From the NCBI GenBank assembly GCA_963744145.1, contig CAVUSO010000001.1, positions 1,806,831-1,870,830 of the forward strand: 64,000 nucleotides of DNA, in the 5' to 3' direction. Shown here piece by piece: positions 34,251-54,580 of the stretch; position 1 is the stretch's first letter; every line of letters begins with the position of its first letter. Both the position numbers and the translations under genes were made by a program. Below the pieces are notes generated by a model. That model ran no database searches and was not told where the DNA came from. It worked only from the letters and a program-made list of their open reading frames with translations. This stretch comes from an uncultured cyanobacterium (lineage in GTDB: Bacteria > Cyanobacteriota > Cyanobacteriia > Cyanobacteriales > CAWUOF01).

Positions 34251-37200
34251 ATGACTGTCTATGTTTATATCACCGAGCAATGTAAAAATGACGCTAGCAG
34301 ACATGGTGCCATCAATGATATTGAGAAATTCAAGGAAAAGCTAGAAAATGACCAAAGTGCTCGTCTGCTCACTCGTCTTGATTATCGATATCACAGAAGG
34401 GTCATGGGGACGAATAGTAGCGCAAGATTGGTGATTGAAGAATATCGTACTGATCACGACACCATCGTTTTGTGTTTTGTAGGATATCATATCCGGAGTA
34501 GCGCTGATTACAGTTTATTACTAAACAGTCCAAACACTTACTACGAACGATATGGGGTAACAGATGAAGAAATTGAAGCATTTCTCAAAGAGAAAACTAT
34601 AAATCCAATCAAGAAAAAGCCACAACTGACAGAATTTGAATCTGAGTATCTTCAGTCTGCAAGCGGATACGATTACACTAATGATGGTGCCTTTTTAGAA
34701 AGTTACGACTGGGTTGAGCGCATTTCTGAAGATTGGGCTAAAAGCTACTTAAATCGTTACCATGATCTGATTTTTAAGTTGACAGAGGAAGTTGAAAGTT
34801 GTATAAGTCATGTAGGGATAGACACGCTTTCCCATGATAAGAACCCAAATATAAAAATAATTTTCCGGAGTTTTCCTGAACATAGACGAATTTTCCTGAT
34901 CGCTCCTATTAATTGGCAGAAAGATAGCGATGAAAAAAATATCCGTGAGCAATACGCCGATTTATTAACAGCAAACTCACTCAAAATGGAAGACCTAATC
35001 CGCAACAGTCTTCGCGCATATCCAACAATTATTATCTATGATGAAGATATTTGGATGCGAGTAGAAAATACTACAGAAGCAAATCTAGCCCTGTCACCAG
35101 AAGAAGAATGTGTTCTTGGATCTGTAAAAAGTCGAGTTAGCAATGGGGCTAAGTATCCTCTATTTATTAATGGTCGTCCTGGGAGCGGAAAATCTACAAT
35201 TCTTCAGTATTTATTTGCAGAACAGCTAGCTAATTTTATTAAATTGCTTAATAATTCAAACATCAATAATCCTCCACTTTATCTTACTTATAGTACGCCC
35301 TTGTTAGAAGAAGCCCGCGAATTAGTCAAAAAAATTTTAACTTGTGGAATTCGCCATGTAGAGGATGAAAGTATACAAGCATTTGTCACAGATTATAACA
35401 AACTGCATTCATGTTTCCGTAATTTTCGTGAGTTTTTGCGCTCATTACTACCACTCGAAATTCGCGATCGCTTTGTCCAAGCTAATTATGTAGACTTTGC
35501 TCGTTTTCGCAAACTTTGGGAAGACAAGCGTGGTAAACATCCGCAGAAGGAAGTCCGCAGCATTGGGCCGGAACTAGGGTGGCACGCAGTGAGAACTTTC
35601 ATTAAAGGTATGCAATCGGAATCGGGAATTGTGGTAGACCCTGATTATTATCGAGATGAGCTAGCGCGAGACAGTAAATCCATTTCCGATCAGACTTTTG
35701 AAATCATTTACGAGCATATTTGGAAGAAGTGGTATGAGCCTCTTTGTAAGAATGAAAAGTATTGGGATGACCAAGACTTAGCACTTGAGGTTCTGATTAA
35801 TGTAGGGGAACAATTATCGGGTTATCCAGCGGTGTTTTGCGATGAGGCTCAAGATTTCACCACGATTGAGCTAGGACTGATTGAGCGGCTTTCAGTCTAC
35901 TCTGGGAAAGAAATACATAGCTTTTGGGTAAAGAATGTACCCTTTGCCTTTGCTGGTGATCCGTTTCAGACTCTGAATCCAACAGGGTTTAATTGGAGTG
36001 CCATGCAATCTAATTTTTATGACAATATTATTAAGCAGTTAGATCCTAGGGGCATAGCGAAGCTAGAGTTTAATTTTCAGGAGCTAGCATTTAACTATCG
36101 ATCGGCAGAACATATTGTCAAACTCGCTAATCTGATTCAATTACTACGTGCTGTCTTACTTCGGATTAAGGGAATTCGTCCTCAATATAGCTGGACTCGT
36201 AAAATTACCAACAGTCCTGTTTATTTTCGGTGGGATGATATTAACTGCCGCGCCAAACTCCGTGAACAAGATGAATTAGTTATGATTGTTCCTTGTCAGG
36301 AAAATGGTGAATTTGAATATGTAAAAGAAAATGAATTTCTGACATCGATCGCGATTAATCAGGCTGGAGAAATATCTAGAAACATTCTCAGTCCAGCCAG
36401 GGCTAAGGGCTTAGAGTATGATCGGGTTGTTCTCTATGGATTTGGTGATGAAGCAGGAAAGCGTTTTCCAGATTTACTAGCACAGATCAATGATCCTAGT
36501 AAAGATCCGCCGGATCTAGAACAAAGATTATCATGGGAGTATTTTCTCAATCAGTTTTATGTGGCGATTAGTCGTCCCCGTAAGCGATTATTTATAGTTG
36601 ATTCAGATGAATCATTGAAAAATTTCTGGTTGTTCACTGCTCCTCTAAAACAAAAAGTATTGCTCAGTCTCTATGATCTTTATCAACCTAATCATAATTG
36701 GAGTTTAGATGAACTGGGAGGTATGCTGGAAGGGGATAATTCAAGTTGGTTAGACGATCGAGACGATCCTTTAGAATTAGCTTCTCAATGGCGAGATCAG
36801 GGTCAGCTTCAGCGTGATCCTTATTTATTACGTCTGGCTAAAGATAACTTCTATCGGGCTGAGCGTTTTGAGGACGCAAGTTTGTGTGAAGCTAAACAAT
36901 ATGAATATGAAGGTGAGTTTAAAAAAGCTGCGGAACTATTTATTAATCTTGGTCAATCTGGTGAAGCTTGTCGTTGTTACTGGACAGATCGAGATGCTAA
37001 CTCGGTCGTTCGTTTGGTTGAAAAGTTTCCTAAGATTACAACTGATCTACGTTTTATTGCTGCGGGTTCTATTGTGAGAGAGCGCAATACAGTATTCCAG
37101 CTTAATCACGTACTGACAGCACTCGAACAAACCCCCCCATCATTGACAGAGCTACCGGAGGAAGTGGAGGGGTGGCGCTGGTTTTTTAGTTGTTTTGCAG

Positions 37201-38723
37201 ACAAGATCAGTGAAGAAATCTTAGCTTCTGACCGCGCAACAGCAGAATGGAAACCCTATATTGAACGTTTGATTCAAACTATTAAACGGTTTGAATTACC
37301 TCTGAGCGCTTATCCAGAAATTGCTAAACTCCTTTATTTGTCTGGAGATGCAAGAGTCGCGATCGATCACTGGAATCGGTACTGTCGGGATTATAAATCC
37401 GATCGACCGGGAGAAAAATGGCTCACTCAAGCCCGAGCAGAAACAGAAGCATATCCTACAAATATCCGTTTTTACCATGAACTGGGTGATTATCAAACGG
37501 TTATTAATCAATGGACATTAGCCGATCGCATCATCGATAGCGATACACCAGTAAGTTTGCTACTTGATAGCGCCGCTAGGTTGAATGATCTTACAGCACT
37601 GCGAGCTATATTACCAGCAACTGACGATCTTAACAAATTGAATCGGGCGCTTAGTCTGCTTAATGACAAGACTATTCTCTCTTTAGAGGGAGCATTATGC
37701 GTTGCAATTACCCACTCAATGGAATCTTATGGTGATGGGGAAAAAATTATCCAGTTTGTGGTCAACAAAACCACCTCAAACAAAGAGCTAGATGCGAGAA
37801 TTAAAAATGCAGGAATCGCATGGAAAGGTAAAGTGTTAATAGCTGCGGCAGTTCGAGCTATAGCCCGTTCAGAGCGATTATTCCAAGATCAGGTTAAAGC
37901 TCAAAAAATATCTGAATTTTTGAAGCAAGTTCTAATTTTAGAAAAAGATGCAAATCCCAATAAACAAAATCGAGTCAAGTCGGTTTTGGAATTAATAGAT
38001 ATTACCGAGGCTGGAGCAGCATTTGAAAGAGGATTTCGTCGGTTAAATTATGCACTGGATTTTTATGAACAATTCTTTGAAAATAGCTATCTTGCTTATC
38101 GTGTACTAAATCCTTCTCAGGAGCAAACTGAGTTTGCTAAACTACGATGGATTTTTTGCAAGCGTCGTTTAGCTGATATCACCAGGGATAATAAATATAG
38201 GACTGAGGCTGACAATCGGGGACGTGAGTGGAATATTTCAACTAATCAAAAACCTGATTCTCTAAACCTTCAGCCCATCAGTGAGCTAAAGCTTTCTATT
38301 CCTGGACTAGCTGCTCCATCATCCAGTCCTTCAGCTAGTGAAATAACCAAACAAAAACAACCATTACCAACCAAAATTAAACCATTAGATAAAAGTAAGA
38401 AAACGATTATATTCAAATTAGATAACCAGCAAATAAAAGTGGAAGCTTTTCCCCTGAAAAAGCGAATTATTTTGACTGATTATGAAACTCAAAACCAAGT
38501 AAAATGCGAGTTTCAAAATGTGACAAGTGAAGATATTGAGATTAAGGAGGAAGTCTCTGTCTCTGAACAGATCCGAATCTGGAATATTTCTGATTGGGGA
38601 CTTCGATGTGAAATGGAAGCTAAAGAAGATTTAGCGACAATCCGTTTTCGTCTTCCTCATGGAGTGGTAAAGGAATTTAGATTTATCGTGAATAAAAAAG
38701 TCGAAGATAAAGATCACCCCTAG
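34251..38723 (+). CDS. Giant (1490 aa) UvrD/Rep-like SF1 helicase fusion protein with an unknown ~280-aa N-terminal region and a ~650-aa C-terminal alpha-helical/TPR-like plus beta-rich extension
   Basis: Motif I FINGRPGSGKSTIL, II VFCDEAQDF, III FAGDPFQTLNP, IV FNYRSAEHIV, V ARAKGLEYDRVVLYGF, VI YVAISRPRKRLFIVD. Confidence 0.7.
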   Translation: MTVYVYITEQCKNDASRHGAINDIEKFKEKLENDQSARLLTRLDYRYHRRVMGTNSSARLVIEEYRTDHDTIVLCFVGYHIRSSADYSLLLNSPNTYYERYGVTDEEIEAFLKEKTINPIKKKPQLTEFESEYLQSASGYDYTNDGAFLESYDWVERISEDWAKSYLNRYHDLIFKLTEEVESCISHVGIDTLSHDKNPNIKIIFRSFPEHRRIFLIAPINWQKDSDEKNIREQYADLLTANSLKMEDLIRNSLRAYPTIIIYDEDIWMRVENTTEANLALSPEEECVLGSVKSRVSNGAKYPLFINGRPGSGKSTILQYLFAEQLANFIKLLNNSNINNPPLYLTYSTPLLEEARELVKKILTCGIRHVEDESIQAFVTDYNKLHSCFRNFREFLRSLLPLEIRDRFVQANYVDFARFRKLWEDKRGKHPQKEVRSIGPELGWHAVRTFIKGMQSESGIVVDPDYYRDELARDSKSISDQTFEIIYEHIWKKWYEPLCKNEKYWDDQDLALEVLINVGEQLSGYPAVFCDEAQDFTTIELGLIERLSVYSGKEIHSFWVKNVPFAFAGDPFQTLNPTGFNWSAMQSNFYDNIIKQLDPRGIAKLEFNFQELAFNYRSAEHIVKLANLIQLLRAVLLRIKGIRPQYSWTRKITNSPVYFRWDDINCRAKLREQDELVMIVPCQENGEFEYVKENEFLTSIAINQAGEISRNILSPARAKGLEYDRVVLYGFGDEAGKRFPDLLAQINDPSKDPPDLEQRLSWEYFLNQFYVAISRPRKRLFIVDSDESLKNFWLFTAPLKQKVLLSLYDLYQPNHNWSLDELGGMLEGDNSSWLDDRDDPLELASQWRDQGQLQRDPYLLRLAKDNFYRAERFEDASLCEAKQYEYEGEFKKAAELFINLGQSGEACRCYWTDRDANSVVRLVEKFPKITTDLRFIAAGSIVRERNTVFQLNHVLTALEQTPPSLTELPEEVEGWRWFFSCFADKISEEILASDRATAEWKPYIERLIQTIKRFELPLSAYPEIAKLLYLSGDARVAIDHWNRYCRDYKSDRPGEKWLTQARAETEAYPTNIRFYHELGDYQTVINQWTLADRIIDSDTPVSLLLDSAARLNDLTALRAILPATDDLNKLNRALSLLNDKTILSLEGALCVAITHSMESYGDGEKIIQFVVNKTTSNKELDARIKNAGIAWKGKVLIAAAVRAIARSERLFQDQVKAQKISEFLKQVLILEKDANPNKQNRVKSVLELIDITEAGAAFERGFRRLNYALDFYEQFFENSYLAYRVLNPSQEQTEFAKLRWIFCKRRLADITRDNKYRTEADNRGREWNISTNQKPDSLNLQPISELKLSIPGLAAPSSSPSASEITKQKQPLPTKIKPLDKSKKTIIFKLDNQQIKVEAFPLKKRIILTDYETQNQVKCEFQNVTSEDIEIKEEVSVSEQIRIWNISDWGLRCEMEAKEDLATIRFRLPHGVVKEFRFIVNKKVEDKDHP

Positions 38724-39065: not shown

Positions 39066-42000
39066 TCAAAATAAAAGTTGACTTTCTTGGGAGCGAGAGG
39101 GCAATGACCAGCTCTTGACTTTACCCAAGGTGACCGGCATCGGCAGGGCCACATCAATAGTAAAGCGGAAGACCTTACGCCCCCGACGACTATTATCTGG
39201 GTCGTAAAACTCGAGTTTGATATCCCAACAGTCACTGTTGATGCGACAGAAGGGGCTTTTTTCAACTTGAATGGTGTCAAGTTGACGACCCTCGGCGATC
39301 GCTAGAGCAAAGGTTAAAGCCGCTTGGAAGATATTGGTAGCAGCGAAATTAAGAGCGCGATCGCGGGAAGTCTGCCCTACATTGCGTAAATCATTGTAGA
39401 CTCGGTTAAGGAAGATGATCAGAGCTTGTCGAACCAAGGGTTCTTGGGCTGCATCCACTCGATTGGAAATGGCTGTCATTGCCGCGTTTACCAGAGTATT
39501 TACTTTCCATCCATACATTCCCCGCACATCATGGACTTTCACCACAGGCAAAACCTGACCTGAGAAGAGTTCCACCGTGCGGTTGGTGCGTCGGGCTGGT
39601 ATGCTAATTCGCTCTACAAATTCATCACTGGTTTCTGGTTCGAGTTGCCCCACCAACATCAGCAAAAACATCTCGTAGATATCTGATGAAAACGCTCCTG
39701 TTGGTTCAAGGGCATAAATAGTATCGCCATCAAGGCTCAAAGTCCAGATGAGGGAACGGCTCTCATCTGGGTGGCGATCGAGATGCTCGACCATCTGACG
39801 GACATCGTAGGGGTCAGGCGGAACCATTATCCCGTTAACTTCAGTCGGAGCCATCATTTGCTTGAAGGTATCGCAGCGGGCTTCATCTCCAAAGTCGTAG
39901 TTAATAGTCCCTAAAACGTAAACGTTGCCAGAGAAAGCCGTGCTAGCTTCGATCGTGCCTAGCTCTGCGGTAGTCTCAGCTACTGTAAGGGATATTTCAG
40001 TTGGTGTGGCAGATGCGGTGAGTGGCATGGCTAAACTGGTGGTTATAGCAGTGCTGATCCTTGTCTGGGCAGCAATAGCGCTAGGAACAGCATATCCACC
40101 ACGCTCTGTACGGGTGACTTGGTCACCTGCAAAGGAAATGGTGACAGATGGTTGCCCAAACAGCACCTTCATCGTGCCCGGTATATTGACAAAACCGCGC
40201 ATACAGCGTTCGGATTCTTCTACAATCTTTGGATCGCAAGGAATCGCAGTATTGAGCAATGCCGTTCGGATCGCTTCAGCATCGACGGGTTTACCCTCTT
40301 GTAGCTGCAAACTCATCATTAGTGCAGAGATTCCGGTCACGATCGGAGCAGCTCCACTGGTGCCCGTTCTGAGCCTCGGTTTCTCAGTTGCTAATTGTGC
40401 GCCCCAAATGTCGTCACCAGGAGCCATAATCCCTTCTTCAGTATAATTGCCTCCCCAATTATTGTAGTGGGCTGGTGGGTTGCCTAGATCCATTGCTCCT
40501 ACAGGAAGAGTTCCTGGCAATACACCAGGTAAACACCAGTATTCACCCAAACCGTTACCCGCAGGCCCGACAATCAAAATATTGTTATCTAGGCACTTCT
40601 GTACAGCTTGGGTAAACAACTCTTCTCCTTGACAAGTTTGGGTGGGGCGACATATTCCACAATGAATGATATTTGCCCCCAAATCCAGGGCCAGTTCAAA
40701 AGCACGGGCTAGATTAAGGGGAGAGGCAAGTTCCTCCGCCATCTCTATGCTGTCAAGTGGTAGATTAATTAGGCGACAGTTAGGAGCAATACCAGCAGCA
40801 GGGGTATTTTCTTGACCCACAATGATACTGGTGACATGGCAAGTATGGTCATCAATTTTAAGACGTGCGATCAGAGGTTCCGGAAAACTAGCCCTGAGTT
40901 CTGCTTCTTTCTCCTGCTTGGTGCGATCGCTGTCTTCAATAGCTCGGAAGGTGGCGTACTGTTCTGAAGAAATTGGCCCTGGAGTCTCGTGCCAGTAAGG
41001 AAAGACTTTAGAAATTGCAGCTCCCTGGAAACAGGACAACGAGTGGTCGGGGTTGCCTTCGAGAACCACAATAGTGATGCGAGGGTCGCCGAGAGTTTGG
41101 TTGCGGAGTTCAGCCAGTCCCGGGATGCGATCGTCAAGGTCGTGGGGATGAAGTGCCATAGAAACATCTTGTGCTGTCGCCTCAACTGTGCTCGTTGAAA
41201 CGGTTGCAGATGAACTCAAGGATGCGAGCAAATCTGACTCTTCGTCAACCGAAACACCAGTCTGCGTTGCTTCAGTTATTAGTTGTGCTGATGTAGAAAC
41301 ATCTACAGATCCAGCCCCATTCACCACAACCTCCGTGGTATAGTCATTCTCCTCAAGTTCGTAGGATGCCACTTCACTAGCCGAAACTTCTACTGACCTA
41401 AGCTTGTTCCAGCCAGCTACTGTAGCTGAACTCGCATCACTTGTACCCACAGCATGGTTTGGTAACGACCCCAACATGAACTCACCCACAGCCGACTCTT
41501 TCACATAATCCAGACCTGCTAATTGCCCAAAACCGTCGCTATCTCCACCTCCCAACGCGCAGGGAGCAAGACCCATATTAGTAGACACTAAATAGAGATT
41601 TTGCTGTAGCACTCCAACATCTTTCAACACCAACGAATAGGCTACAGAGCGATACTTGCGGAACAGCCTGCCAAACCTTGCCGTAATCACAAGAAGAACT
41701 TGTGGTTGGGGTTTGTAATAAATATAAGGTTCTAGAGCAAGGACATCCTGGGATGCAGCAATCTGCTCCAATTGATGATTTATTGGATCGTAGTGATACA
41801 ATCCTGTGTCTAGTCCTTGACAAAGTCGCACCACTGGATAAATTTCTAGCTCATACATTGCTCCGCTACCAGGATAAGGCCGACTACCTAGCTCACCATA
41901 GTCAATATCCGCGTCAAAGCCGAGTATTTTCCGCCAATTTTCACCAAGCCACTCCTCCTCTCGAAGAATATTTTTGACACGGGCAGTGCGATAAAGAAGT

Positions 42001-42932
42001 TCACCGAGTTGTTCTATCGTGATAGGATGTGCATCGTCGTGTTCTCGAATCGATTTCCGTCTCTCAATCACTTCTGTGAGTGTAGCATCGTTACATTGCA
42101 ATGCCTCCAAGTTTGGACGCGGTAGAGACACAACTTTGTCGCTCATGGGTGGCTTTACCACCGGAAAATCAGACCACTGTTCGATGTTGATATCTCCTAC
42201 TGGATAGTCATGGCGGCCTAATCTGCTCCGGCTGTGGAACAACAGGTTGTGAAAGTCCCAAAGTTGGAGCGAGGGGGTTTCAGGGTCAGCCGTCAGAAAT
42301 CCTGATGCCCACAGCAATTTGAGAAACTGATAGGCTGTTTCTGGACCTAGGTAGGGTGGTGGTGTCAGTGTGCCCAGAGATTGGGGTTGGGCAAGTTGAG
42401 CCAGAATAGCACTTGCCCGCCAGTCGAGAAGTTTAACCCGAAACTTTGAGAGGGGGGACTCCAGCACCATGGTGCCGTCGTGGGGATGCTGATAGGCAAA
42501 GCGGGAGAGGGTGATATTTGTTTGTGTCCAGTAGGGTTCGGTCAGATTTAGCTCGGCAGATTCCACCATCGGGATCGCTAGTGCTAGGGGCAACACAGCA
42601 TAACTCAACCAACCCCGCTGATCCAATTGTTGTAGCATTAGGGCGAACTGTTCCCCTGCTATCCGACCATCAAGTTCGACTAACCCTTGCACAAGTGATT
42701 CATTGGTAGAGTTGCCTACCTTGAGAAGATCAAGAGCCATACTGATTCCAGGTGTTGTTGCTAGGGTGAGCAAATCATTGGGATTGGATTCTGCTGATGA
42801 ACGTAGAATATAGTGGTCTTCGGTACTTGTCACTTGGACAAAAGGATTGAGGAAAATATTGAAGGGATGGTTGCTCATAGCAAATGATAATGGGAAACAA
42901 TGATTAGGCAAGTGAGTCAATGGCAATAGCAA
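39066..42932 (-). CDS. patG: PatG-like cyanobactin maturation protein: N-terminal SagB-type FMN dehydrogenase (azoline oxidase), subtilisin-like (S8) protease/macrocyclase domain, and the PatA/G C-terminal DUF
   Basis: SRPYPGSGAMYELEIYPVV (SagB/nitroreductase motif). S8 blocks ITIVVLEGNPD, ILIVGPAGNG, GTSGAAPIVTGISALM. C-terminal ~230 aa is about 60% identical to the C-terminus of the PatA-like protein (…LNFAATNIFQAALTF…EKSPFCRINSDCWDIKLEFYDPDN…). Confidence 0.8.
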   Translation of the reverse strand: MLLPLTHLPNHCFPLSFAMSNHPFNIFLNPFVQVTSTEDHYILRSSAESNPNDLLTLATTPGISMALDLLKVGNSTNESLVQGLVELDGRIAGEQFALMLQQLDQRGWLSYAVLPLALAIPMVESAELNLTEPYWTQTNITLSRFAYQHPHDGTMVLESPLSKFRVKLLDWRASAILAQLAQPQSLGTLTPPPYLGPETAYQFLKLLWASGFLTADPETPSLQLWDFHNLLFHSRSRLGRHDYPVGDINIEQWSDFPVVKPPMSDKVVSLPRPNLEALQCNDATLTEVIERRKSIREHDDAHPITIEQLGELLYRTARVKNILREEEWLGENWRKILGFDADIDYGELGSRPYPGSGAMYELEIYPVVRLCQGLDTGLYHYDPINHQLEQIAASQDVLALEPYIYYKPQPQVLLVITARFGRLFRKYRSVAYSLVLKDVGVLQQNLYLVSTNMGLAPCALGGGDSDGFGQLAGLDYVKESAVGEFMLGSLPNHAVGTSDASSATVAGWNKLRSVEVSASEVASYELEENDYTTEVVVNGAGSVDVSTSAQLITEATQTGVSVDEESDLLASLSSSATVSTSTVEATAQDVSMALHPHDLDDRIPGLAELRNQTLGDPRITIVVLEGNPDHSLSCFQGAAISKVFPYWHETPGPISSEQYATFRAIEDSDRTKQEKEAELRASFPEPLIARLKIDDHTCHVTSIIVGQENTPAAGIAPNCRLINLPLDSIEMAEELASPLNLARAFELALDLGANIIHCGICRPTQTCQGEELFTQAVQKCLDNNILIVGPAGNGLGEYWCLPGVLPGTLPVGAMDLGNPPAHYNNWGGNYTEEGIMAPGDDIWGAQLATEKPRLRTGTSGAAPIVTGISALMMSLQLQEGKPVDAEAIRTALLNTAIPCDPKIVEESERCMRGFVNIPGTMKVLFGQPSVTISFAGDQVTRTERGGYAVPSAIAAQTRISTAITTSLAMPLTASATPTEISLTVAETTAELGTIEASTAFSGNVYVLGTINYDFGDEARCDTFKQMMAPTEVNGIMVPPDPYDVRQMVEHLDRHPDESRSLIWTLSLDGDTIYALEPTGAFSSDIYEMFLLMLVGQLEPETSDEFVERISIPARRTNRTVELFSGQVLPVVKVHDVRGMYGWKVNTLVNAAMTAISNRVDAAQEPLVRQALIIFLNRVYNDLRNVGQTSRDRALNFAATNIFQAALTFALAIAEGRQLDTIQVEKSPFCRINSDCWDIKLEFYDPDNSRRGRKVFRFTIDVALPMPVTLGKVKSWSLPSRSQESQLLF

Positions 42933-43439
42933 GTGGTGAAATCATCAGTAAGGGATAGAAATTAAATAACTAGCTTGCTTGTAGTAACACATCAGAGCGA
43001 AGACAGCGCTTACTACGAACCAAACCGTCAAGTTATTTATTTTTCATTCCTAATGGCATCTTATATGTTGTTAAAAATTCGATCCCGTATAACTTTAAAA
43101 GGTTAGGTTTTTTTGGACGGTTCAACAATTGTTTTATCCGCTAACTATAACAAAAGATTTATTATGTTCGATCGCCCTCAACATCGCAATTAGGCTCAAT
43201 CCCACACAAACCTTCTATTCCAAGAACAGCTTCTTCAAATAAAGGAATCGGAAAACTAGGTTCTACATCAAAAGCATCTCGGTGAGCCCGCATAAACCGA
43301 AGACGGTGTTCTCGTAGATAATTATGTAAAAATCCAGAATTTATCGTCATAATCGTATTTCCTCATCCAACACTTTTTAAGTTATCTGCTGCAAATTATA
43401 TGCACCCATTCAGAATAGGTTTTGAGTTTGGATGCACTT

Positions 43440-45233
43440 TCATTTTATCTTGTTCACAAAATTATTTATTTCGTAGTACATTTTTACTCTCTGAATTGAA
43501 TCAATATAAAACTCAGATTCAGGAATACCTAAATACAGCCTCTTAAAGACTCGATTCCGGTAATAAGCATGGACTTTATTCACCATCTCATTGCCCAAAT
43601 ATTCAACAGCACTATTGGGAGATTTGAAATTAGTGAAATAAAGGACATCACTATCGTTCTCATTGCTAATACCGATTTGAACAACTCTACTCTCATAGAA
43701 AAGAGGAAGTGCTCTAGCAGGTAATCTCGAAGTTAAATATGCTTGTACATCCAGGCGATCGAGATCGGCAGGATAAAAAGTAGGATAGACTTCTACCGCC
43801 GCTTTATTGTTAAAGAAAAAGTCAAACCCTACTAATAAAGTCCCATTGATAATTAATTTCTCCCAGTCTCGCTTTTCTCCGCAAAGTGCGATGGCAATTG
43901 CTATCTTTTCTGGATAATCCCTGATGCTAAGAAATAACTTTATTCGTGAACGTTTTAGTTCTGGACGAACATCGACACCGACAGACACCATATCTACTTT
44001 ATGAGGGTCTATACCTGTAGCTAAAAACTGCTGAAGTAAACTGCGATCAAGCTGAATTTCTGGACTTCCTTCTATCAAACGAGAGAAAGAGAGGAAATCT
44101 TCAATATCAAGCAATTTCACTACTGGATCGGGAACACCAACTTCAGAGAGATAAGTAAAACGAGCTGGATAAAAACAATCTTTTTCAATATTGCAGCAAC
44201 AGGCAATACAACCTCCTTGATCTTTTCTCTGCTTACCGATAAATTCTGCAAATAAATTTAATGGATAAGAATTTTCAATATTAAAAACTTGTTTGTGTTC
44301 TTCAAAATAACGCAAATTTTCTTCATGGCGATTCAATCCGAAACTGGACTTCACACCAGAAAAATGCTTTTGGGGTTCAACTTTTATTCTGGCAGGTTTG
44401 ACCGCTTTAATATCAGCAAAAAATAAGGGTAAATTGGGGTGAAGGAAATTTGCAGAAGCTAGACGTAGAGCTAGTGATGGCATCTTAACTGTTTGGTTTT
44501 CATCATATTCAATAGATTGGAAACCAGCCTCATGAACAAGCTCAACTAAGTTCTTAAGAGGAATAACATGGCTGTTTTGGAGTTCTTGCTGGTTGATTTC
44601 ATCCATTGCTTTTTGCTCTAGTGGAGAAAGGGGTGGCTCTTTAACAAAGAGACCCGTAATATATAGAGTTCCCCCCGGATTTAGCACGCGTCTGGCTTCA
44701 GCAAGGACTTGGGATACCCGATTAGAATACTTGATGCTGTCGTTGAAAAACACTACATCAAATACTTCATTGGGAAAAGGTGGGAAATGAAAATCACCTA
44801 CTTGGACCCGCACCCGATCAACCAAGTTAGCTTGGGCAATCCGAATTTGGGCTTCTGCCGCTTCCACCTCAGAAATTGTTAGACCCTCAATCCGGGTTCC
44901 TGGAAACAACTGAGCAATATGAATCGCCGGAATTCCTGCTCCACAACCAGCATCAAATATATAGTTTCCGGGCTTTATCCCCATGCGATCTGCTAGACTA
45001 AGGTTGTGTGATCTAGCTACTGCATCAGGAACCATCCGACTAAAGTTGATGGAGTGCTTATTATAAAAAGTGCGAACTTCTTCGACTTCGGGCGTAGGGT
45101 TAGGTTGAATAGGAGCACTTGGACTGATGTAGTTATTTTGCATGATGTTCGATAGGGATAACTGGCGGAAAGAAAAGTCTGGATGACTTGATGGTGAGCT
45201 TAAGTGCATCTTCAACAGTAAAGACAAGACCAA
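43440..45233 (-). CDS. Class I SAM-dependent methyltransferase fused to a C-terminal domain occupying the PatF (cyanobactin prenyltransferase family) position; putative bifunctional MT-PT
   Basis: MTase motif I IFDAGCGAGIPAIHIA, post-I acidic residue, motif II/III region. ~350-aa C-terminal domain of PatF-like size immediately downstream of the precursor gene. The PT call is positional/inferential. Confidence 0.5.
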   Translation of the reverse strand: MVLSLLLKMHLSSPSSHPDFSFRQLSLSNIMQNNYISPSAPIQPNPTPEVEEVRTFYNKHSINFSRMVPDAVARSHNLSLADRMGIKPGNYIFDAGCGAGIPAIHIAQLFPGTRIEGLTISEVEAAEAQIRIAQANLVDRVRVQVGDFHFPPFPNEVFDVVFFNDSIKYSNRVSQVLAEARRVLNPGGTLYITGLFVKEPPLSPLEQKAMDEINQQELQNSHVIPLKNLVELVHEAGFQSIEYDENQTVKMPSLALRLASANFLHPNLPLFFADIKAVKPARIKVEPQKHFSGVKSSFGLNRHEENLRYFEEHKQVFNIENSYPLNLFAEFIGKQRKDQGGCIACCCNIEKDCFYPARFTYLSEVGVPDPVVKLLDIEDFLSFSRLIEGSPEIQLDRSLLQQFLATGIDPHKVDMVSVGVDVRPELKRSRIKLFLSIRDYPEKIAIAIALCGEKRDWEKLIINGTLLVGFDFFFNNKAAVEVYPTFYPADLDRLDVQAYLTSRLPARALPLFYESRVVQIGISNENDSDVLYFTNFKSPNSAVEYLGNEMVNKVHAYYRNRVFKRLYLGIPESEFYIDSIQRVKMYYEINNFVNKIK

Positions 45234-45403
45234 AGAAGGAACATAGGACTTTAAAAAAGTTTTTTATCTAAGCCTCCTTGGCCTTGTCTGTAGTCTCAAG
45301 CCTATCAACGTTTAATCCCGATATTTAGGGCAGTAAACTGCAATTTTACCGGATTTGGAAGGCTTAAGATGCAATTTGCTGGCCATTCGCAAATTGGAAG
45401 AAT

Positions 45404-45646
45404 TTAGGCATCACCATCGAAGGAACAGATGCATATGATAGCTGCATCTACACCATCGAAGGAACAAATGGTTGGAACGAAAGCTGCATCTACACCATCG
45501 AAGGAACAGATGCATATCATAGCTGCATCTACACCAGCACCACCGAGAGCTTCCTCAGATAGTTCAGCCAAGTGGCTGGGGAGTTGACCATTGGTAATGC
45601 GGAGTACGGGTTTGGCTTGTTGGGGCAGGATATTTTTCTTATTCAT
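45404..45646 (-). CDS. patE: Cyanobactin precursor peptide (PatE-like), 80 aa: conserved leader + three core cassettes
   Basis: Leader MNKKNILPQQAKPVLRITNGQLPSHLAELSEEALGGA is PatE-like. The rest is GVDAA-MICIC-SFDG-VDAA-FVPTIC-SFDG-VDAA-IICIC-SFDGDA. The DNA shows three cassette repeats at 45420-45540. The track ORF (to 45745) has a spurious N-terminal extension. Confidence 0.8.
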   Translation of the reverse strand: MNKKNILPQQAKPVLRITNGQLPSHLAELSEEALGGAGVDAAMICICSFDGVDAAFVPTICSFDGVDAAIICICSFDGDA

Positions 45647-45780
45647 GGAACTAATCCTTATTTTGTTGCTTGGTTTGTTGACCCGTTTAGGTGGGTTAAT
45701 CCTCTCCTTCATTGAGAAGAAGGCTGATGAAGCAACATCTGGCACGTAGAGAAGCCCGTTGCCTGCAAACTTTAAAAGAC

Positions 45781-48129
45781 TTAGAATGGTATATTCATAG
45801 GATTCATTTCTGCCTCAGCCAGGGGTAAAATTTGCCACCCTAACTGCACCGGAACATCATAAAGCCGCCCGGGAGCAAACCGCGACCATAAACCTCTCAT
45901 TCCGGGTATAATCACTTTGACGACATTCAAGCCAATGTCCGGTCGCGTTTGGTCTAATACCAAAGTTTCTAGCCCTACTGTTTGAGCTATCCCTACACAA
46001 GTCATCACATCTGTATAGATATCATCACTCCAACGTTTCGGGTAATCATTGGCAGTCTTCATCGGCTGTGTTTGATCGGGAAGTAGACAAGGATGACTAG
46101 ATCGAGTCACTTCTAAAAACCAGTCTTTCGACTCATCTTTGAGTTGCTCGTCAGGAATTTTGTCAAGTTCCAGTCCAACCTGACTCACCTCAGTCAAACT
46201 GCGAAGAATAGCAATCTTCGGGTCTAGATGCGCCCCAAAACCGACGATCACCCGCTCTGAACTTCCTACTGTGCGATACGATATACCCGCAAACGCCGGA
46301 ATTCCCAGGTCAGCAGTTAAATCCAGCACCCAAAGTTCTCGGTTCCGCTCCTGGTAGAACTGCTGCAACTGGAGAAAATAAGGCTCATCAAAGCTGCTGA
46401 GATCCACCCCTGGACGTCTAAGGCGGTTGTACCACCACAGGGCTACGCTATCACGCTCCACCAGTTCCATAAACCCTTGCAATATTGCCTCTTCAAGGGT
46501 ATTGCCCGCCGCGTTACCGTTGGAATCTGCCTTACAGAAACGATTGGTTTCTGGGATGGGATAGTGGTAGTAGCAAAAGGCAGTGGGAAGGTATTTGTGT
46601 GTCTGTGCAGTCAATGACCATACTGGTGTCCAGTCAATGGCTTGACTGGCATCAAACCGATGGGGAATCCAGCGATAGGCTGCTTCTGTCCCTTGAGCGT
46701 TTAGGGCTTCTCGATTAGCATACTGCCCATCGCTAAAGTACAAACACTGCTCCGGATGAATTGCCAAGTCTCCTAGTTCTGCTAGAGTTGCCCGTTTACG
46801 GGGTTCATCTCCCTGAAAGATCCCTGAATAGCGTTCCACTGCCTCACATAACCCACTTGCCCGCGATTGGCTATCGGTTTTGCCCTTGCCCGAACTCTTG
46901 TGGCGGAGGGTATTACGTAGTCCCCGCAGGGATATAGCACTACCAAAACTATGCCCTGCCCGGTAAGTATGAACCAATTGGTTGGCTGGATCGGTGATTC
47001 GCACTAGTTCTGTCACTACCCCTGTAATCGGGCTGATCAGGTGTTGGTATTTCTGAACAGTCTGTTCCGGGGTAACAGCGCGGTGACCACCATCAGCCGT
47101 GAAGTGCTTGGGGCGCGATTCTAGCTGTAGCGGTTCAAATCCCCGTCGTTGCAGGATACCTGAGTCGCCACAGGTCGGACATTGAGGTCGCTTAATCAAG
47201 ATATGACTTTTCAAGTCCAGAATCGTCTGGTTAAAGGTGATAATCTTGCCGTCTAGGGTAGGGAAGAGCGCAGTTCCTGGTGCAGTTTTATTGGCATAGT
47301 GCTTGACAATCCACTTGGCAATTTCAGTTGCTGCAAACTGTAACCCCGTTTGTAAGGTTGAAGGTAGTGTTGCCCGTGCTGTGGGGAGGCAACCTACCAC
47401 CCGCACTTTTTGGCCATTGCGCTCTTGTTGGGCTTGTTTTTGCCGCAAGACCGACGACTCAACTTCTCGATTGCCCCGCAATCGCTGGGCAAGACAGTCC
47501 CAACACCCCGTCTTTCCAGGAACAAACACCGGACCTAACCAGAGAACACTGCCCACTGGCTTGATTAGTAGCCAAGCTTGTTGGTGTTGCAGAGCCTGTT
47601 GGTTAATTGCCCCTAGTTCGGGCTGTAAATAATCATCAGTCAAAACTATGTTAATTACTGCGGAGGAACCCGCATCTGTGGGTTTTTGTACCGCAATACC
47701 CATCTCCTGCAACGCATTGGTGAGAGCAGTAGCAGTTACTTCATTGATGTTCTCCCCCACTGTTGTCAGCGTGACCGGCTGATGTAGTCCCTGTGCTGCA
47801 ACAGCGGGTGAAATCCCTAACTCGCTCCAAAATGCCGCCACTTCTGGGGATAAAATCGGGGCAGCCTCGGTGAGGTATCCCTTCTCTGCCAGGCGATTGA
47901 GCACATAGTCAATATATTCTGGTGGAACTTCCCCATCCAGCTTTTCGACAATCTGCATCTGGGTATATTGCCCATCCAACAGAGGCAATATTTGGCAGTA
48001 GAGTTGCCCTGTGAGGACATAGTTAGCCTGTTCGCCAAGTAGATAAACTTGCTTTGGCTCAATGATCTCGACATGAAAGTGGGGCTTAATTTGCAGCAGT
48101 GTGGTAGATTGCATGGAGCGAACAGTCAT
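45781..48129 (-). CDS. patD: PatD-like cyanobactin heterocyclase (E1-like docking domain + YcaO cyclodehydratase), 782 aa
   Basis: Size and domain order as PatD/TruD. Cys-x-x-Cys pairs (CWDC, CPTC) in the N-terminal zinc-tetrathiolate region. YcaO-type C-terminal domain. Located directly upstream of the precursor. Confidence 0.8.
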   Translation of the reverse strand: MTVRSMQSTTLLQIKPHFHVEIIEPKQVYLLGEQANYVLTGQLYCQILPLLDGQYTQMQIVEKLDGEVPPEYIDYVLNRLAEKGYLTEAAPILSPEVAAFWSELGISPAVAAQGLHQPVTLTTVGENINEVTATALTNALQEMGIAVQKPTDAGSSAVINIVLTDDYLQPELGAINQQALQHQQAWLLIKPVGSVLWLGPVFVPGKTGCWDCLAQRLRGNREVESSVLRQKQAQQERNGQKVRVVGCLPTARATLPSTLQTGLQFAATEIAKWIVKHYANKTAPGTALFPTLDGKIITFNQTILDLKSHILIKRPQCPTCGDSGILQRRGFEPLQLESRPKHFTADGGHRAVTPEQTVQKYQHLISPITGVVTELVRITDPANQLVHTYRAGHSFGSAISLRGLRNTLRHKSSGKGKTDSQSRASGLCEAVERYSGIFQGDEPRKRATLAELGDLAIHPEQCLYFSDGQYANREALNAQGTEAAYRWIPHRFDASQAIDWTPVWSLTAQTHKYLPTAFCYYHYPIPETNRFCKADSNGNAAGNTLEEAILQGFMELVERDSVALWWYNRLRRPGVDLSSFDEPYFLQLQQFYQERNRELWVLDLTADLGIPAFAGISYRTVGSSERVIVGFGAHLDPKIAILRSLTEVSQVGLELDKIPDEQLKDESKDWFLEVTRSSHPCLLPDQTQPMKTANDYPKRWSDDIYTDVMTCVGIAQTVGLETLVLDQTRPDIGLNVVKVIIPGMRGLWSRFAPGRLYDVPVQLGWQILPLAEAEMNPMNIPF

Positions 48130-48163
48130 TGATTAAGTGGACAAAAACCAAACATCCCATTAA

Positions 48164-48763
48164 TTAAGCCCAGATGCGACCCCGTCGGAAGTCCTTGGGC
48201 TGCTGTTCAGGGGTTTTGGCAGATCTTTTGGCATAATCCCACCAATAGGAATAATCTTGCAGCCCGGTCTGGGAAGTGGGCACATAAGACTTTTTCGGTT
48301 CAGGGGTTGAGGAGACTTCCGAGGTTGTTGGTGTTGGTGTTGGTGTTTTCTTAGCCATCGTTTTTTTAGTTTCCTTGGGTGTTTCGGGTGTTTGGGAGGT
48401 TGGCGGTAGCTGGAGATTAACCACTCCCTCTAGCTTGAGGTAGTCGATCCGGTGTACTCCATCTCCCGACCCTTTAACAGTGGTCAGGGTTAGGGTATGT
48501 TGCCCAGCACTGAGGGCTGGTAAGGGAATCTGGGTTTGGGTTGGCTTGCCTGACCCGACGCCGACCAGTTCGGTTACTAGTTCACCATCAACCCAGAGGG
48601 TGTCAACTTCAGAGCCAAAAAAGTTATAAAAGAGTGTAAGTTCGCCTGTACTGTAACTTTGGGTTAGGGTGAATTGAATATTTAGTTTGTCGGTGGAAAA
48701 AAGCTGTTTTCCTTTGTGCTGTGGTTTCTTCTTGCGACCTGGAACCAAGAGCAACGATGGCAT
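48164..48763 (-). CDS. Hypothetical protein (199 aa) in the PatC position of the cluster, Thr/Pro-rich linker
   Basis: Positional only. TPETPKETKKTMAKKTPTPTPTTSEVSSTPEPKK low-complexity segment. Confidence 0.35.
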   Translation of the reverse strand: MPSLLLVPGRKKKPQHKGKQLFSTDKLNIQFTLTQSYSTGELTLFYNFFGSEVDTLWVDGELVTELVGVGSGKPTQTQIPLPALSAGQHTLTLTTVKGSGDGVHRIDYLKLEGVVNLQLPPTSQTPETPKETKKTMAKKTPTPTPTTSEVSSTPEPKKSYVPTSQTGLQDYSYWWDYAKRSAKTPEQQPKDFRRGRIWA

Positions 48764-48939
48764 ATGTGGATGGTTAATGGGTTCTGGATCTGACCCAACA
48801 ATGTAGGTAAATTCCTTTTGCCAGCCACCTACCTGCGAAAACTCTTGCCCTCCTTTACCAGGATGACCAATTTGCCATAGAGTTTCAGTTTGCTGAGGTA
48901 TGGTGATGAGCGACTTATCAGTGGCTCTTTAGTGGCTTA

Positions 48940-49191
48940 TTAATAAAATCCTCCCATACCCGCAAAGCCGCCCCAGCCCTGGCTGGATGTACTCTGGCTA
49001 GTACTAGAGTGCATCACCTGGTTGAAACTGCGGTTGGCAAAGGCTGGAGGATCGTTATAGTTAGCGGCATGGAGTAGATCCATCCGAATACCTACCAAAT
49101 CATCAGGACTACCATTTTCCACATCCACACACAACGCTGGTTGGATGAAATGGGGACGTTTAACGGGAGGAGACAATATAGGAAGTCGCAT
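48940..49191 (-). CDS. Hypothetical small protein (83 aa) in the PatB position
   Basis: Positional only. Confidence 0.3.
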   Translation of the reverse strand: MRLPILSPPVKRPHFIQPALCVDVENGSPDDLVGIRMDLLHAANYNDPPAFANRSFNQVMHSSTSQSTSSQGWGGFAGMGGFY

Positions 49192-49296
49192 GGTTGAGGA
49201 TTCTCCGTATGAATATTATGGATAGGATCAACAAACTTAGATGTCTGGACGAGAGTGCATTTGGTTTTTGCACTCTCATGCAAATTGTATTTCCTT

Positions 49297-51249
49297 TTAA
49301 TACGGTGAAGACCAGCTGCGAACTTCGCCCAAGGTAACTGGAATCAAATCGCTCACATCAATGGTGAAGCGGAAAATCTTCTTGGCGCGGCGGTTGTTTT
49401 CCGGGTCGAAGAACTTCAGTTTCACATCCCAACAGTCGCTATCCACACGACAGAAAGGACTCTTCTCCACGGTGATGCTGTCAAGTTCCATGCCCACTGC
49501 TACCGCTTGACTGAAGGTTTGTGCGGCTTGGAAAGCGTTGGTAACTGCGAAGTTGAGAGCGCGATCTTGAGATGTGGTTCCCAAGTTGCGGAGGTCGTAG
49601 TAGATGCGGTTGAGGAAACCATCCAAAGTCCTGCGAATCGTTTCTTCGTCAGCATCCCCAGTTTCCGCTTGAACTGCTGCCAATGCCGCACTCACCAGGT
49701 TGTTGACTTTCCATCCATAGATACCGCGGGTACTTTGGGGTTCAATGACTGGAACAATTTGACCGGAGTAGAGCTTGACCGTGCGTTTGGTTAATATACC
49801 TGGTATGCTGACGCGCTCAACGTATTCGGTATTAGATTCAGGTTGGATTTGACCTGATAGCAGTTCGTGAAGGGCTCGGTAGGATTCAGCACCGAAGGGA
49901 CCTGTGGGGTCGATCGCGTATACTGGAGTTAATTCAATGTTGAGTGTCCAAATTAGCGATCGCGCCTCCGAAATATTATCGTTCAGGTAGTCCACCATCT
50001 GGCGAGCATCGTAGGGGTTAGCCGGGACCATCACCCCTCCCCCCAAGTCAAACGGTGGCATCAGTTGCTTAAATGAGTCCCTCCGGGCTTCAGTTCCGAA
50101 GTCATAGCCGAGGGTGCCCAGGGAATAGACCAGCTGACCGAGATCGGCAAGTTCGCTGGGGGCTTGGCTGGCGGTGACAGAGTTAGCAGTGAAGTTGGGC
50201 ATCGTTGGTGGTTGGGTGATAGGGTTAGGAAAGGATTGAATCAATTCTTGCAAGTTGGGGGTGTTGCTGGGGACAGCTCCAACCGCTCCGGGCGTGGCAG
50301 CGATCGCTTCACTGGTGTTGGTTAAGCCACCAGTACAACCGCAACCTCCCGCTTCTACTGATGAGGCATCTACTGATGCAAATTCCTCAGCCATTTTTCC
50401 TCCTTTTAATAACGTTATGGCACCAGGGATGTTTAGTTTGCCTGCCAGACACCGTTTAGTGTCTGGCAAGTCTGGGTCGTCGCAGGGTAAGGCACTCTGC
50501 AACAAAATTTGCCGAATTTTGTGGGAGTCTGGGGTTTCTCCCTCCTCCTGCTGCATACTCAGCAAGACCGCTGCTACACCTGAAACGATAGGAGTAGCGA
50601 AGCTCGTACCACTCAGGCGCTGGGTGCCGCCCCCAGGTTTAGCCCCCAGGATATCCTCCCCTGGGGCAAGAATACCTTGTTCTTGGTAGGTTTCGCCCCA
50701 GTTGCTAAAATCCAGGGGTTTACCATTAGCATCCATAGCTCCCACCGCTAGTACATCGGGCAAGGCAGCGGGCACATGTAAGCAATCACAACCATTGTTG
50801 CCAGCGGCAGCGACCAGCAAAACATTGTTCTTTTGGCACAAACGAATGGCATTCTGAAGCCAGCCATCGGATTCGCCAAAATCAGTCAGTTGACCCCCAC
50901 TGATGTTGATCACATGGGCTCCAGCATTGATCGCTTGCTCTATTCCTCGCGCCAAATCTAGCTGAGAGGTCTTGCGCCGATCGTCGGCAAAAACCGGTAC
51001 AATTATTCCCTTACATTGGGGCGCAATCCCCTGGACTGGACTCCCCGGTTGCCCAAATATAATGCTGGCAACGTGGGTTCCGTGGGTGGACATACTGCCA
51101 TCGCTCTTTGCTTTTTCTTGCACCAATGTGGGTAGATACTTAATGTCTGCGCCTTGGAAGCAAGCATGAGTCTGATCGACAGGACCATCCAAAACTGCTA
51201 TACAAATACTGCTATCTCCCTGAGAGATGCTACGCAATTTATCTAGCAT
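49297..51249 (-). CDS. patA: PatA-like cyanobactin N-terminal protease: subtilisin (S8) domain + C-terminal PatA/G DUF
   Basis: ICIAVLDGPVDQTHACF (Asp), STHGTHVASIIFG (His), AAAGNNG (oxyanion Asn), LSGTSFATPIVSG (Ser). C-terminal domain homologous to the PatG-like C-terminus. Confidence 0.85.
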   Translation of the reverse strand: MLDKLRSISQGDSSICIAVLDGPVDQTHACFQGADIKYLPTLVQEKAKSDGSMSTHGTHVASIIFGQPGSPVQGIAPQCKGIIVPVFADDRRKTSQLDLARGIEQAINAGAHVINISGGQLTDFGESDGWLQNAIRLCQKNNVLLVAAAGNNGCDCLHVPAALPDVLAVGAMDANGKPLDFSNWGETYQEQGILAPGEDILGAKPGGGTQRLSGTSFATPIVSGVAAVLLSMQQEEGETPDSHKIRQILLQSALPCDDPDLPDTKRCLAGKLNIPGAITLLKGGKMAEEFASVDASSVEAGGCGCTGGLTNTSEAIAATPGAVGAVPSNTPNLQELIQSFPNPITQPPTMPNFTANSVTASQAPSELADLGQLVYSLGTLGYDFGTEARRDSFKQLMPPFDLGGGVMVPANPYDARQMVDYLNDNISEARSLIWTLNIELTPVYAIDPTGPFGAESYRALHELLSGQIQPESNTEYVERVSIPGILTKRTVKLYSGQIVPVIEPQSTRGIYGWKVNNLVSAALAAVQAETGDADEETIRRTLDGFLNRIYYDLRNLGTTSQDRALNFAVTNAFQAAQTFSQAVAVGMELDSITVEKSPFCRVDSDCWDVKLKFFDPENNRRAKKIFRFTIDVSDLIPVTLGEVRSWSSPY

Positions 51250-51590
51250 TTAAAAATGTTTATTCCCAAAATTAATAAATATAATCGCATACTTGTTCAG
51301 ATGAGCAACCTGGTAGTGATTGGGCATGACTCTCCTTTAAGTTAACTAGCTATTAAGTTTTTTGGCCAGTTGTTGTTTATAATACAAAGCGATAAAATTA
51401 TTTAAGCATACTAAATTGCTTATCGTACCAGGGAATAAAAAAAAATACAAAACTTTACAATTAACATCTGGTTGACTTTGATCACCAAATAGGTTATTAA
51501 AAATATCTTCCTTCAACTCCAATCTGAGTTTGGGATCATCCATATTACCCATAGAGACCTATTGTTCTTACGCCCCTACTAAAAGTTATC

Positions 51591-51840
51591 CTTGATAATA
51601 TTGGATAAATCGAGCGGGAATTTCTGGAGATATTCCCCAATGGAGATGAATATAGGAAGCGTATAATTGATATATTTGCCATCCTTCATATTCAATGACA
51701 CTTTGACGAGAATAACCCCCTGTTTTTAACAGAGGACTTGCTGAATTTTCACTTAAATGCGATCGATGAAATTCATGCCCAAATGCCCAAAAATATTTGT
51801 TCCTTGCTAATTATTATTTCTTCAGATCAAATCATGGCGA
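51591..51840 (-). repeat. Displaced ~250-bp copy of the 3' end of cobB (last ~80 codons) abutting the stop of the hybrid kinase gene
   Basis: Reverse complement encodes ...GYSRQSVIEYEGWQIYQLYASYIHLHWGISPEIPARFIQY.., matching the cobB C-terminus at 60064-60300. Confidence 0.75.
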
Positions 51841-54015: not shown

Positions 54016-54310
54016 AATAATTATAGCTCTATTAGGAAGATAAATGCAAAGTTAACTATCGCTTCGATCGCTTGCTCAAAAAAGCCAACCACATCACATT
54101 ATTGACGATGACAAGTTCTGGAGTAAACACTCTTTTCGCAACTTTAACATATTACCTTAATTTTTAATTCATATTTCGCACATTTTTAGGTTTCATTACA
54201 TATTTTAATCTTATGGCGAAAATGGCATAAACTTAAACTAACCTTAAATTCTTTTACGCGCCATCATGGTATCAAAGGTTAGAGTTAAGAGTTTTTAACC
54301 CAGCAAATCC

Positions 54311-54430
54311 GTGACAATATTGGATAAATCGAGCGGGAATTTCTGGAGATATTCCCCAATGTAGATGAATATAGCAAGCGTGTAACTAATATATTTGTCA
54401 TCCTTCATATTCAATGACACTTTGACGAGA
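54311..54430 (-). repeat. Degenerate ~120-bp copy of the cobB 3' end (contains an in-frame stop)
   Basis: ttggataaatcgagcgggaatttctggagatattccccaatgtagatgaatatagcaagcgtgtaactaatatatttgtcatccttcatattcaatgacactttgacgagaataac aligned to 60071-60190. Confidence 0.7.
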
Positions 54431-54580
54431 ATAACTATTCCACTCCAATTACATTTACCCACTAAATTTAGTTTAGTAATTGGTATAAGTCTTCACCCAG
54501 AAGGGAAAACAGCACTGTTGCACATTAGTCAATTACAGCTTGAAATACGGGTTCAGTTTCCTAGAGATCCTGTGTCATAC

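Follow-up and report, generated by a model that had tools for sequence, protein, structure and literature searches.

Does a single protein encoded at 43440-45233 (minus strand) of a 64-kb stretch of contig CAVUSO010000001.1 both prenylate and methylate the products of a cyanobactin cluster, and are these products linear peptides? This question was raised by an earlier note on the whole stretch of 64,000 nucleotides (hereafter the window), which read the open reading frame (ORF) at this position as a methyltransferase (MT) fused to a prenyltransferase (PT). Our analysis of this gene, here called MTPT, indicates that it very probably encodes a bifunctional 'peptide protectase' of the AgeMTPT type, belonging to an aeruginosamide-like linear cyanobactin pathway.

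Reading frame and domains of MTPT

The frame over 43440-45233 on the minus strand is uninterrupted, as the earlier note had it (597 codons counted from TTG), and contains neither frameshifts nor internal stops. Its start was placed differently. Residue 1 of AgeMTPT aligns by tblastn at ATG 45143 (MQNNY), the equivalent start is common to all 21 aligned homologues, and the database gene call (P0001) is a 567-aa protein that is 100% identical to the MTPT protein. The TTG at 45233 was dropped as a start, and the coding sequence most likely begins at ATG 45143, because homologues and gene calls start there, 90 nt further downstream. The gene and its parts are as follows (residue numbers of Pfam and NCBIfam matches refer to the 597-codon ORF).

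43440..45143, minus strand: MTPT coding sequence in its most likely extent, 567 aa plus stop (conserved ATG, P0001, tblastn with AgeMTPT)
44505..44996, minus strand: class I S-adenosylmethionine (SAM)-dependent methyltransferase domain, core Pfam match (Pfam, NCBIfam, alignment, Foldseek)
44334..44387, minus strand: inter-domain linker, residues 253-270 of the 567-aa protein (model and alignment)
43470..44324, minus strand: LynF/TruF/PatF-family (DUF5838, ABBA-type barrel) prenyltransferase domain (hidden Markov models, Foldseek, alignment)

In the N-terminal half, five Methyltransf families of Pfam score above their cut-offs at residues ~80-243, led by Methyltransf_11 (E 5e-17, 62.7 bits against a cut-off of 21.2). 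The motif IFDAGCGAGIPAIHIA, on which the first assignment to class I SAM-dependent methyltransferases was based, occupies residues 92-107 of the ORF; motif I of the domain reads YIFDAGCGAGIPAIH, and VGDFHFPPF and FDVVFFNDS are also present. The stretches FDAGCGAG, VGDFH and FDVVFFNDS are invariant in the 21 homologues, and MTPT retains the GxGxG SAM motif together with all family-invariant positions. By sequence, this half matches MitM (9e-20) and RebM among solved structures. An AlphaFold model built on the 21 homologues (mean predicted local distance difference test score, pLDDT, 83) was compared with PDB entries by Foldseek, and the fold of the domain matches the class I methyltransferases MitM, RebM, TleD and AtmM. 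Thus, the domain has the Rossmann-like fold, the glycine-rich motif I and the downstream acidic/aromatic motifs of this class, and the first assignment is borne out by Pfam and the predicted fold.

The C-terminal half belongs to the family that the earlier note had deduced from gene position. Pfam DUF5838 (PF19156) covers residues 304-588 (E 7e-104, 347.8 bits against a cut-off of 28.8), and NCBIfam TIGR04445, 'LynF/TruF/PatF family peptide O-prenyltransferase', covers residues 306-588 (E 5e-89, 298.6 bits against a cut-off of 140). Among solved structures, the sequence matches include KgpF (8YE0, E 2e-59), PagF (5TTY, 9e-37) and PatF (4BG2, 3e-11), and SmiF, DciF, LimF and PirF are also matched. 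The model shows two well-folded domains joined by a disordered linker, with a pLDDT of mostly 88-97 in the PT domain and below 50 in the linker. The PT domain superimposes on KgpF with a template modelling (TM) score of 0.93-0.95 (normalised to the target, as are the following) and a root-mean-square deviation of 1.8 A; the corresponding TM scores are 0.87-0.90 for LimF, 0.85-0.86 for PagF and 0.83 for PatF, and KgpF, LimF, DciF, PagF, PirF and PatF all reach a Foldseek probability of 1.00. In the predicted model, the domain therefore has the ABBA-type alpha/beta barrel of the solved family members. The fold check on this half, which had been proposed to tell an ABBA prenyltransferase from a non-ABBA fold, gave the former and no sign of the latter.

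Orthology to AgeMTPT

MTPT and AgeMTPT of Microcystis aeruginosa PCC 9432 (P0006, CCH92966.1 / WP_002754528.1) share 78% identity over 95% of the ORF, with indels at the C-terminal tail only. The identity amounts to 80% in the MT domain and 79% in the PT domain, and to 32% in the linker; compared with the orthologues in general, the linker is 23-32% identical, versus 73-84% in both domains. Aeruginosamides B and C were discovered in this strain, PCC 9432, and its age gene cluster. The MT-PT protein of the viridisamide strain, Oscillatoria nigro-viridis PCC 7112 (WP_041622606.1 / AFZ08007.1), reaches 76% identity over its full length. The outcomes that the earlier note had named as speaking against its reading were all checked for, and none was found. 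Moreover, all 123 columns that are invariant across 21 MT-PT fusions are kept in MTPT, and a database search revealed 29 protein clusters that share the MT plus DUF5838 architecture.

MTPT has the further attributes of AgeMTPT-type proteins. An N-terminal methyltransferase and a C-terminal prenyltransferase reside in one polypeptide with full-length orthology to AgeMTPT; the gene lies between a precursor gene and a patG-type gene, accompanied by an A protease, a YcaO heterocyclase and an oxidase-containing G; and the precursor cores are short (within 3-6 aa) and Cys-terminated. What is missing is an intact stand-alone gene of the AgeF1 type, which is present in all seven other loci examined; such an intact F1 neighbour is not known to define the family. 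As judged from its sequence, MTPT is a clear orthologue of AgeMTPT, and by every testable criterion it belongs to the AgeMTPT family.

AgeMTPT was reported to carry out both N-terminal isoprenylation and C-terminal methyl esterification (review, PMC10496146), and the gene for the MT-PT bimodular protein was described as the one that sets linear cyanobactin clusters apart (PMC4663559), in agreement with the earlier note, which had called the fusion a hallmark of these pathways. Because of the 78% full-length identity, MTPT may be expected to have both activities. The methyl step would then be the formation of an O-methyl ester at the C-terminal carboxylate, as for AgeMTPT (PMC10496146), and the 'C-methyl' label first given to the enzyme has to be abandoned.

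The residues 'Glu215' and 'Tyr263', which a review gives as engineered in AgeMTPT, were left unused, as the sole Glu/Tyr pair of AgeMTPT spaced by 48 residues is E362/Y410 and the implied offset makes no obvious sense. E362 and Y410 of AgeMTPT are conserved in MTPT.

The surrounding cyanobactin cluster

The neighbourhood of MTPT was searched by tblastn with eight age-cluster proteins of Microcystis PCC 9432 (locus L002). The gene order, A-B-C-D-E-MTPT-F1-G, is collinear with that of the aeruginosamide (age) cluster, and all genes are on the minus strand.

49297..51249, minus strand: PatA/AgeA-type N-terminal protease, 650 aa, 83% identical to AgeA
48940..49191, minus strand: PatB/AcyB/McaB-family protein, 83 aa, 84% identical to AgeB
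48164..48763, minus strand: PatC-family ORF, 199 aa, start codon uncertain, TIGR04447 at residues 166-199
45781..48114, minus strand: PatD/AgeD-type YcaO cyclodehydratase, 777 aa, 80% identical to AgeD
45404..45646, minus strand: PatE/AgeE-type precursor peptide, 80 aa, 66% identical to AgeE
43162..43350, minus strand: remnant of an AgeF1/PatF-type stand-alone prenyltransferase, 62 codons (tblastn)
39066..42878, minus strand: PatG/AgeG-type protein, 1270 aa, 72% identical to AgeG

A, B, D, E, MTPT and G each give one uninterrupted alignment to their age counterparts. G contains a ThcOx/SagB-type azoline oxidase, a subtilisin-like C-terminal protease/macrocyclase and a DUF domain (PatG_D/PatG_C).

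In the PatC-family ORF, resemblance to AgeC (75%) is limited to the C-terminal ~48 aa. Its length varies among clusters, from 75 aa in Microcystis to 199 aa here and 243 aa in the Nostoc loci; the last ~35-48 residues alone are conserved, and the N-terminal part is variable and rich in Thr, Pro and Lys.

The base composition of the region is mosaic. The guanine-plus-cytosine (GC) content of A, B, C, D, E and G is 0.47-0.52 versus 0.41 for the window, that of MTPT is 0.39 (0.36 in the PT domain), and that of the F1 remnant and the adjoining spacer is 0.34-0.40. Such a mosaic within 39066-51249 would fit core genes that were acquired horizontally and an F region with a history of its own.

Loss of F1 and integrity of the prenyltransferase domain

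The remnant downstream of MTPT is 72% identical to AgeF1 residues 1-61 (43168-43350) and then runs into two stop codons; about 900 bp of the gene are gone. It is of the PatF/AgeF1 subtype (AgeF1 matches PatF with E 6e-95). Similarity to other clusters at the DNA level extends from the 3' end of MTPT to about codon 61 of F1, is lost for ~220 bp (c. 43168 to 42940) within an AT-rich spacer (42879-43161, GC 0.34), and resumes just upstream of patG. By comparison, one or two intact F genes of 303-325 aa follow MTPT in each of the seven other MT-PT loci (L002, L005, L006, L007, L008, L009 and L011, from Microcystis, Crocosphaera, Microcoleus, two Nostoc genomes and two metagenomic contigs). MTPT is therefore the only intact prenyltransferase in the cluster, since its AgeF1-type neighbour is a stub. 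A literature search on AgeF1 and AgeG found nothing relevant. The AT-rich spacer was also considered as a repeated mobile element, and this was ruled out as no second copy occurs in the window.

If the PT domain were a catalytically dead scaffold like PatF, the methyltransferase alone would work and the products would be C-terminal methyl esters without an N-prenyl group. Bent and colleagues are said to have reported in 2013 that PatF is inactive, with His and Met substitutions given as the bar to binding of dimethylallyl diphosphate (DMAPP). At these two positions, where PatF carries His and Met (GVHLGSKLEDSSVM), MTPT has Asp391 and Lys402 (stretch GVD391VRPELKRSRIK402, GVDVRPELKRSRIK), and the same Asp/Lys pair is found in KgpF (GVDARRELADSRVK), AgeMTPT and AgeF1. 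The unusually low GC content of the PT half speaks for this reading, as does the decay of the AgeF1 copy, in view of which selection on prenylation may be relaxed here. The frame is nevertheless free of frameshifts and stops, every family-invariant residue is kept in the PT domain, and its counterpart with 79% identity belongs to a protein of reported activity, AgeMTPT (PMC10496146). Therefore, we give a dead PT domain very little credence and continue with a bifunctional MTPT.

Precursor peptide and predicted products

The precursor has the arrangement MNKKNILPQQAKPVLRITNGQLPSHLAELSEEALGGAGVDAA-MICIC-SFDGVDAA-FVPTIC-SFDGVDAA-IICIC-SFDGDA, with LAELSEEAL in the leader. It contains three cassettes, GVDAA/MICIC/SFDG, GVDAA/FVPTIC/SFDG and GVDAA/IICIC/SFDGDA, all with intact flanking sites, which are of the PatA and PatG types. 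The 5-6-aa Cys-terminated cores that the earlier note had read are indeed present.

45506-45520, minus strand: core MICIC
45464-45481, minus strand: core FVPTIC
45425-45439, minus strand: core IICIC

None of the three cores occurs in the 119 other precursor homologues retrieved. The nearest core among them is IICMC from Microcoleus B9-D4, whose genome also has an MT-PT gene. Other cores found beside MT-PT genes are FITIC (Crocosphaera XPORK-15E), IVPCIC (Microcoleus F4-D5) and VYC and YVC (two Nostoc), and the Crocosphaera XPORK-15E precursor shares the 'AA' cleavage site. In AgeE (...GMDAS-FFPC-SYDGADAS-FFPVC-SYDGADAS-FFPC-SYDDGDA), the cores are FFPC and FFPVC. Two of the cores examined here differ from them in having two Cys and no Pro, and the residue to be prenylated is Met, Phe or Ile, versus Phe only in AgeE.

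Gene content and orthology suggest the following pathway, the chemistry of which is modelled on the PatD, PatA and PatG families and on AgeMTPT. The YcaO cyclodehydratase D would bind the precursor leader and turn the core cysteines into thiazolines, as in the PatD/AgeD family. Protease A would cleave after GVDAA and free the core N-terminus, and G would oxidise the thiazolines to thiazoles (Thz) and cleave before SFDG. With cores too short for ring closure, the acyl-enzyme would be hydrolysed to leave a free C-terminal thiazole carboxylate. Finally, by analogy with AgeMTPT, the PT domain would prenylate the free alpha-amine with DMAPP, and the N-terminal MT domain would methyl-esterify the C-terminal thiazole carboxylate with SAM (OMe, methyl ester). 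The predicted products and their masses are given below.

N-prenyl-Met-Ile-Thz-Ile-Thz-OMe, [M+H]+ 624.271
N-prenyl-Ile-Ile-Thz-Ile-Thz-OMe, [M+H]+ 606.314
N-prenyl-Phe-Val-Pro-Thr-Ile-Thz-OMe, [M+H]+ 741.400

Bis-prenylated forms are also possible, with calculated [M+H]+ values of 692.3333 (Met), 674.3768 (Ile) and 809.4630 (Phe) in the above order; the cyclic alternatives would give 524.1818, 506.2254 and 641.3116. Natural aeruginosamides carry zero, one or two N-prenyl groups, in forward or reverse orientation (PMC7551963), and because they vary in both respects, the number and the regiochemistry of the prenyl groups are not fixed in this prediction.

Linear products, macrocycles or a relic

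Several observations weigh against this pathway or parts of it. The nearest solved methyltransferases have unrelated substrates, which they modify at N, O or C, and it is only orthology to AgeMTPT that points to carboxyl O-methylation by the MT domain. The protease sites deviate slightly from those of AgeE, with GVDAA instead of G-x-D-A-S (G(M/A)DAS in AgeE) and SFDG instead of SYDG. The loss of F1 could be a sign of incipient cluster decay. Furthermore, the G protease matches the PatG macrocyclase structures 4H6X and 4AKS with E values of 1e-154 to 1e-159, in an essentially gapless alignment (one 2-residue and one 1-residue indel) that retains the macrocyclase-specific insertion region, and 6-residue Cys-terminated cores are common in microcyclamide/tenuecyclamide-type precursors among the homologues. 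Many hexapeptide cores of related precursors are from macrocyclic families. In view of this alignment, G is by itself compatible with macrocyclisation, which would be realistic only for the hexapeptide FVPTIC.

The fusion could then be genuine while some or all products are macrocyclic, with G cyclising FVPTIC in the manner of PatG-type enzymes. This would leave MTPT no free termini on that product, and it would act on the pentapeptides only or prenylate a side chain such as Thr-O. We regard this as unlikely, although clearly less so than a dead PT domain, since cores of six residues (IVPCIC) are found in the Microcoleus F4-D5 MT-PT cluster as well, two of the three cores here have five residues, and AgeG is equally PatG-like (72% identical to G), yet the products of the age pathway are linear (PMC4663559). 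In the proposed aeruginosamide-like pathway, the two pentapeptide cores are likely to yield linear products; this is less certain for FVPTIC, given the PatG-type macrocyclase domain retained in the G protease. Hence, the earlier prediction of linear peptides rather than macrocycles probably stands for MICIC and IICIC and is weakened for the hexapeptide.

As a further alternative, the cluster might be in decay and no longer expressed, the F1 pseudogene being the first sign of this, and MTPT would then have no current function. The truncation of F1 to 62 codons with the loss of ~900 bp would fit, as would the fragments of a neighbouring gene that recur in the region of the cluster and hint at rearrangements or insertions. 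Against such decay, A, B, D, E, MTPT and G remain alignable end to end with their age counterparts in uninterrupted frames, and the flanking sites are intact in all three precursor cassettes; a relic thus seems quite improbable.

With the cluster taken as functional, a more specific proposal can be made, which we hold tentatively and rate slightly below an even chance: this may be a naturally minimised linear-cyanobactin pathway, in which the AgeF1-type gene has been deleted, the MT-PT protein alone protects both termini and the products include Pro-free bis-thiazoles. If so, prenyl-MI-Thz-I-Thz-OMe and prenyl-II-Thz-I-Thz-OMe would be previously unseen aeruginosamide-like peptides, and G, which also faces a hexapeptide core in the same precursor, would provide a natural test of the boundary between hydrolysis and macrocyclisation.

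Other features of the window

The window contains 62 occurrences of HIP1 (GCGATCGC), versus about 0.4 expected, and its source is therefore a cyanobacterium. Beyond the patA end of the cluster, the 3' end of a CobB/CbiA-like amidotransferase gene is present in four direct copies. The full gene lies at 60064-61449, a truncated 342-aa copy at 56640-57668, and fragments at 51588-51805 (~218 bp) and 54307-54435 (~129 bp), with 91-94% identity. These copies separate the patA end, a low-GC hybrid histidine kinase, a GH3 glycosidase and a YhcG-type nuclease from each other, a pattern suggestive of repeated insertion at a single site located at the 3' end of that gene. The hybrid histidine kinase (CHASE3-HisKA-HATPase-receiver, 51832-54015, minus strand) has a GC content of 0.33 and CobB-like 3' fragments on both sides, and it is probably a separate inserted segment.

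On the other side of the cluster, a 1490-aa protein with a weak UvrD_C match only (34251-38723) is encoded directly downstream of patG. Two paralogous Uma2-family putative endonuclease genes (28488-29351 and 31007-31849, both on the minus strand) lie 1.6 kb apart, adjoined by a gene for a caspase-like/Agenet-domain protein (32647-33804). This region could be a defence or mobile-element neighbourhood. Eukaryote-like signalling proteins are also encoded in the window, namely an LRR-Roc-COR (ROCO) GTPase (25125-28157, minus strand), a fusion of a Ser/Thr kinase with WD40 repeats (14320-16509, minus strand) and a fusion of a Ser/Thr kinase with an FGE-sulfatase domain (1028-2908, minus strand). 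Large genomes of filamentous cyanobacteria typically encode such proteins.

Significance and comparison with known systems

Descriptions of the gene family, of its role and of this type of cluster date back to 2013 and 2017; what is new here is this instance of MTPT, the core sequences and the F1 deletion. The locus adds one more, apparently unannotated, pathway of the aeruginosamide/viridisamide type and leaves the understanding of the family unchanged. If the cluster is active, F1 would be dispensable for the maturation of linear cyanobactins, and the N-terminal residues handled by an AgeMTPT-type enzyme would extend to Met and Ile. Enzymes of the AgeMTPT type could be put to practical use as catalysts for protecting both the N- and the C-terminus of peptides, and MTPT, a 78%-identical natural variant with different native substrates, seems a reasonable candidate for biocatalysis.

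AgeMTPT has the same two-domain order as MTPT, a similar length (571 versus 567 aa) and the same slot between the precursor gene and G; its downstream AgeF1 gene is intact in Microcystis, whereas only the 62-codon stub is left here. The MT-PT protein of O. nigro-viridis shows the same architecture and has 567 aa in RefSeq. An alternative annotation of 613 aa parallels the ambiguity of the MTPT start codon. The precursor cores of that cluster differ from those of the MTPT cluster, and the viridisamide cluster has a separate putative prenyltransferase gene (PMC5460452).

Other relatives correspond to only one half of MTPT. MusH of the muscoride cluster and 'PatA/PatG family' proteins of Microcoleus and Gloeothece (P0030-P0039) have MT domains that are 45-68% identical to that of MTPT, an identity that places the latter in a clade of cyanobactin-associated methyltransferases. 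The fusion partners of the MT in P0030-P0039 are PatG_D/PatG_C DUF domains, whereas the partner in MTPT is a prenyltransferase, which suggests a cyanobactin-specific methyltransferase module joined to different partners. On the prenyltransferase side, KgpF (PDB 8YE0, 39% identical), LimF, PagF (29%), PirF and DciF share both the family and the predicted fold of the C-terminal domain. Unlike MTPT, KgpF, LimF, PagF, PirF and DciF are single-domain proteins without a fused methyltransferase, and they modify side chains (Trp, His, Tyr, Arg), mostly on macrocyclic peptides. PatF (PDB 4BG2) belongs to the same family as well, but its identity with the PT domain drops to ~19%, and it carries the His/Met pair in place of the Asp/Lys of MTPT.

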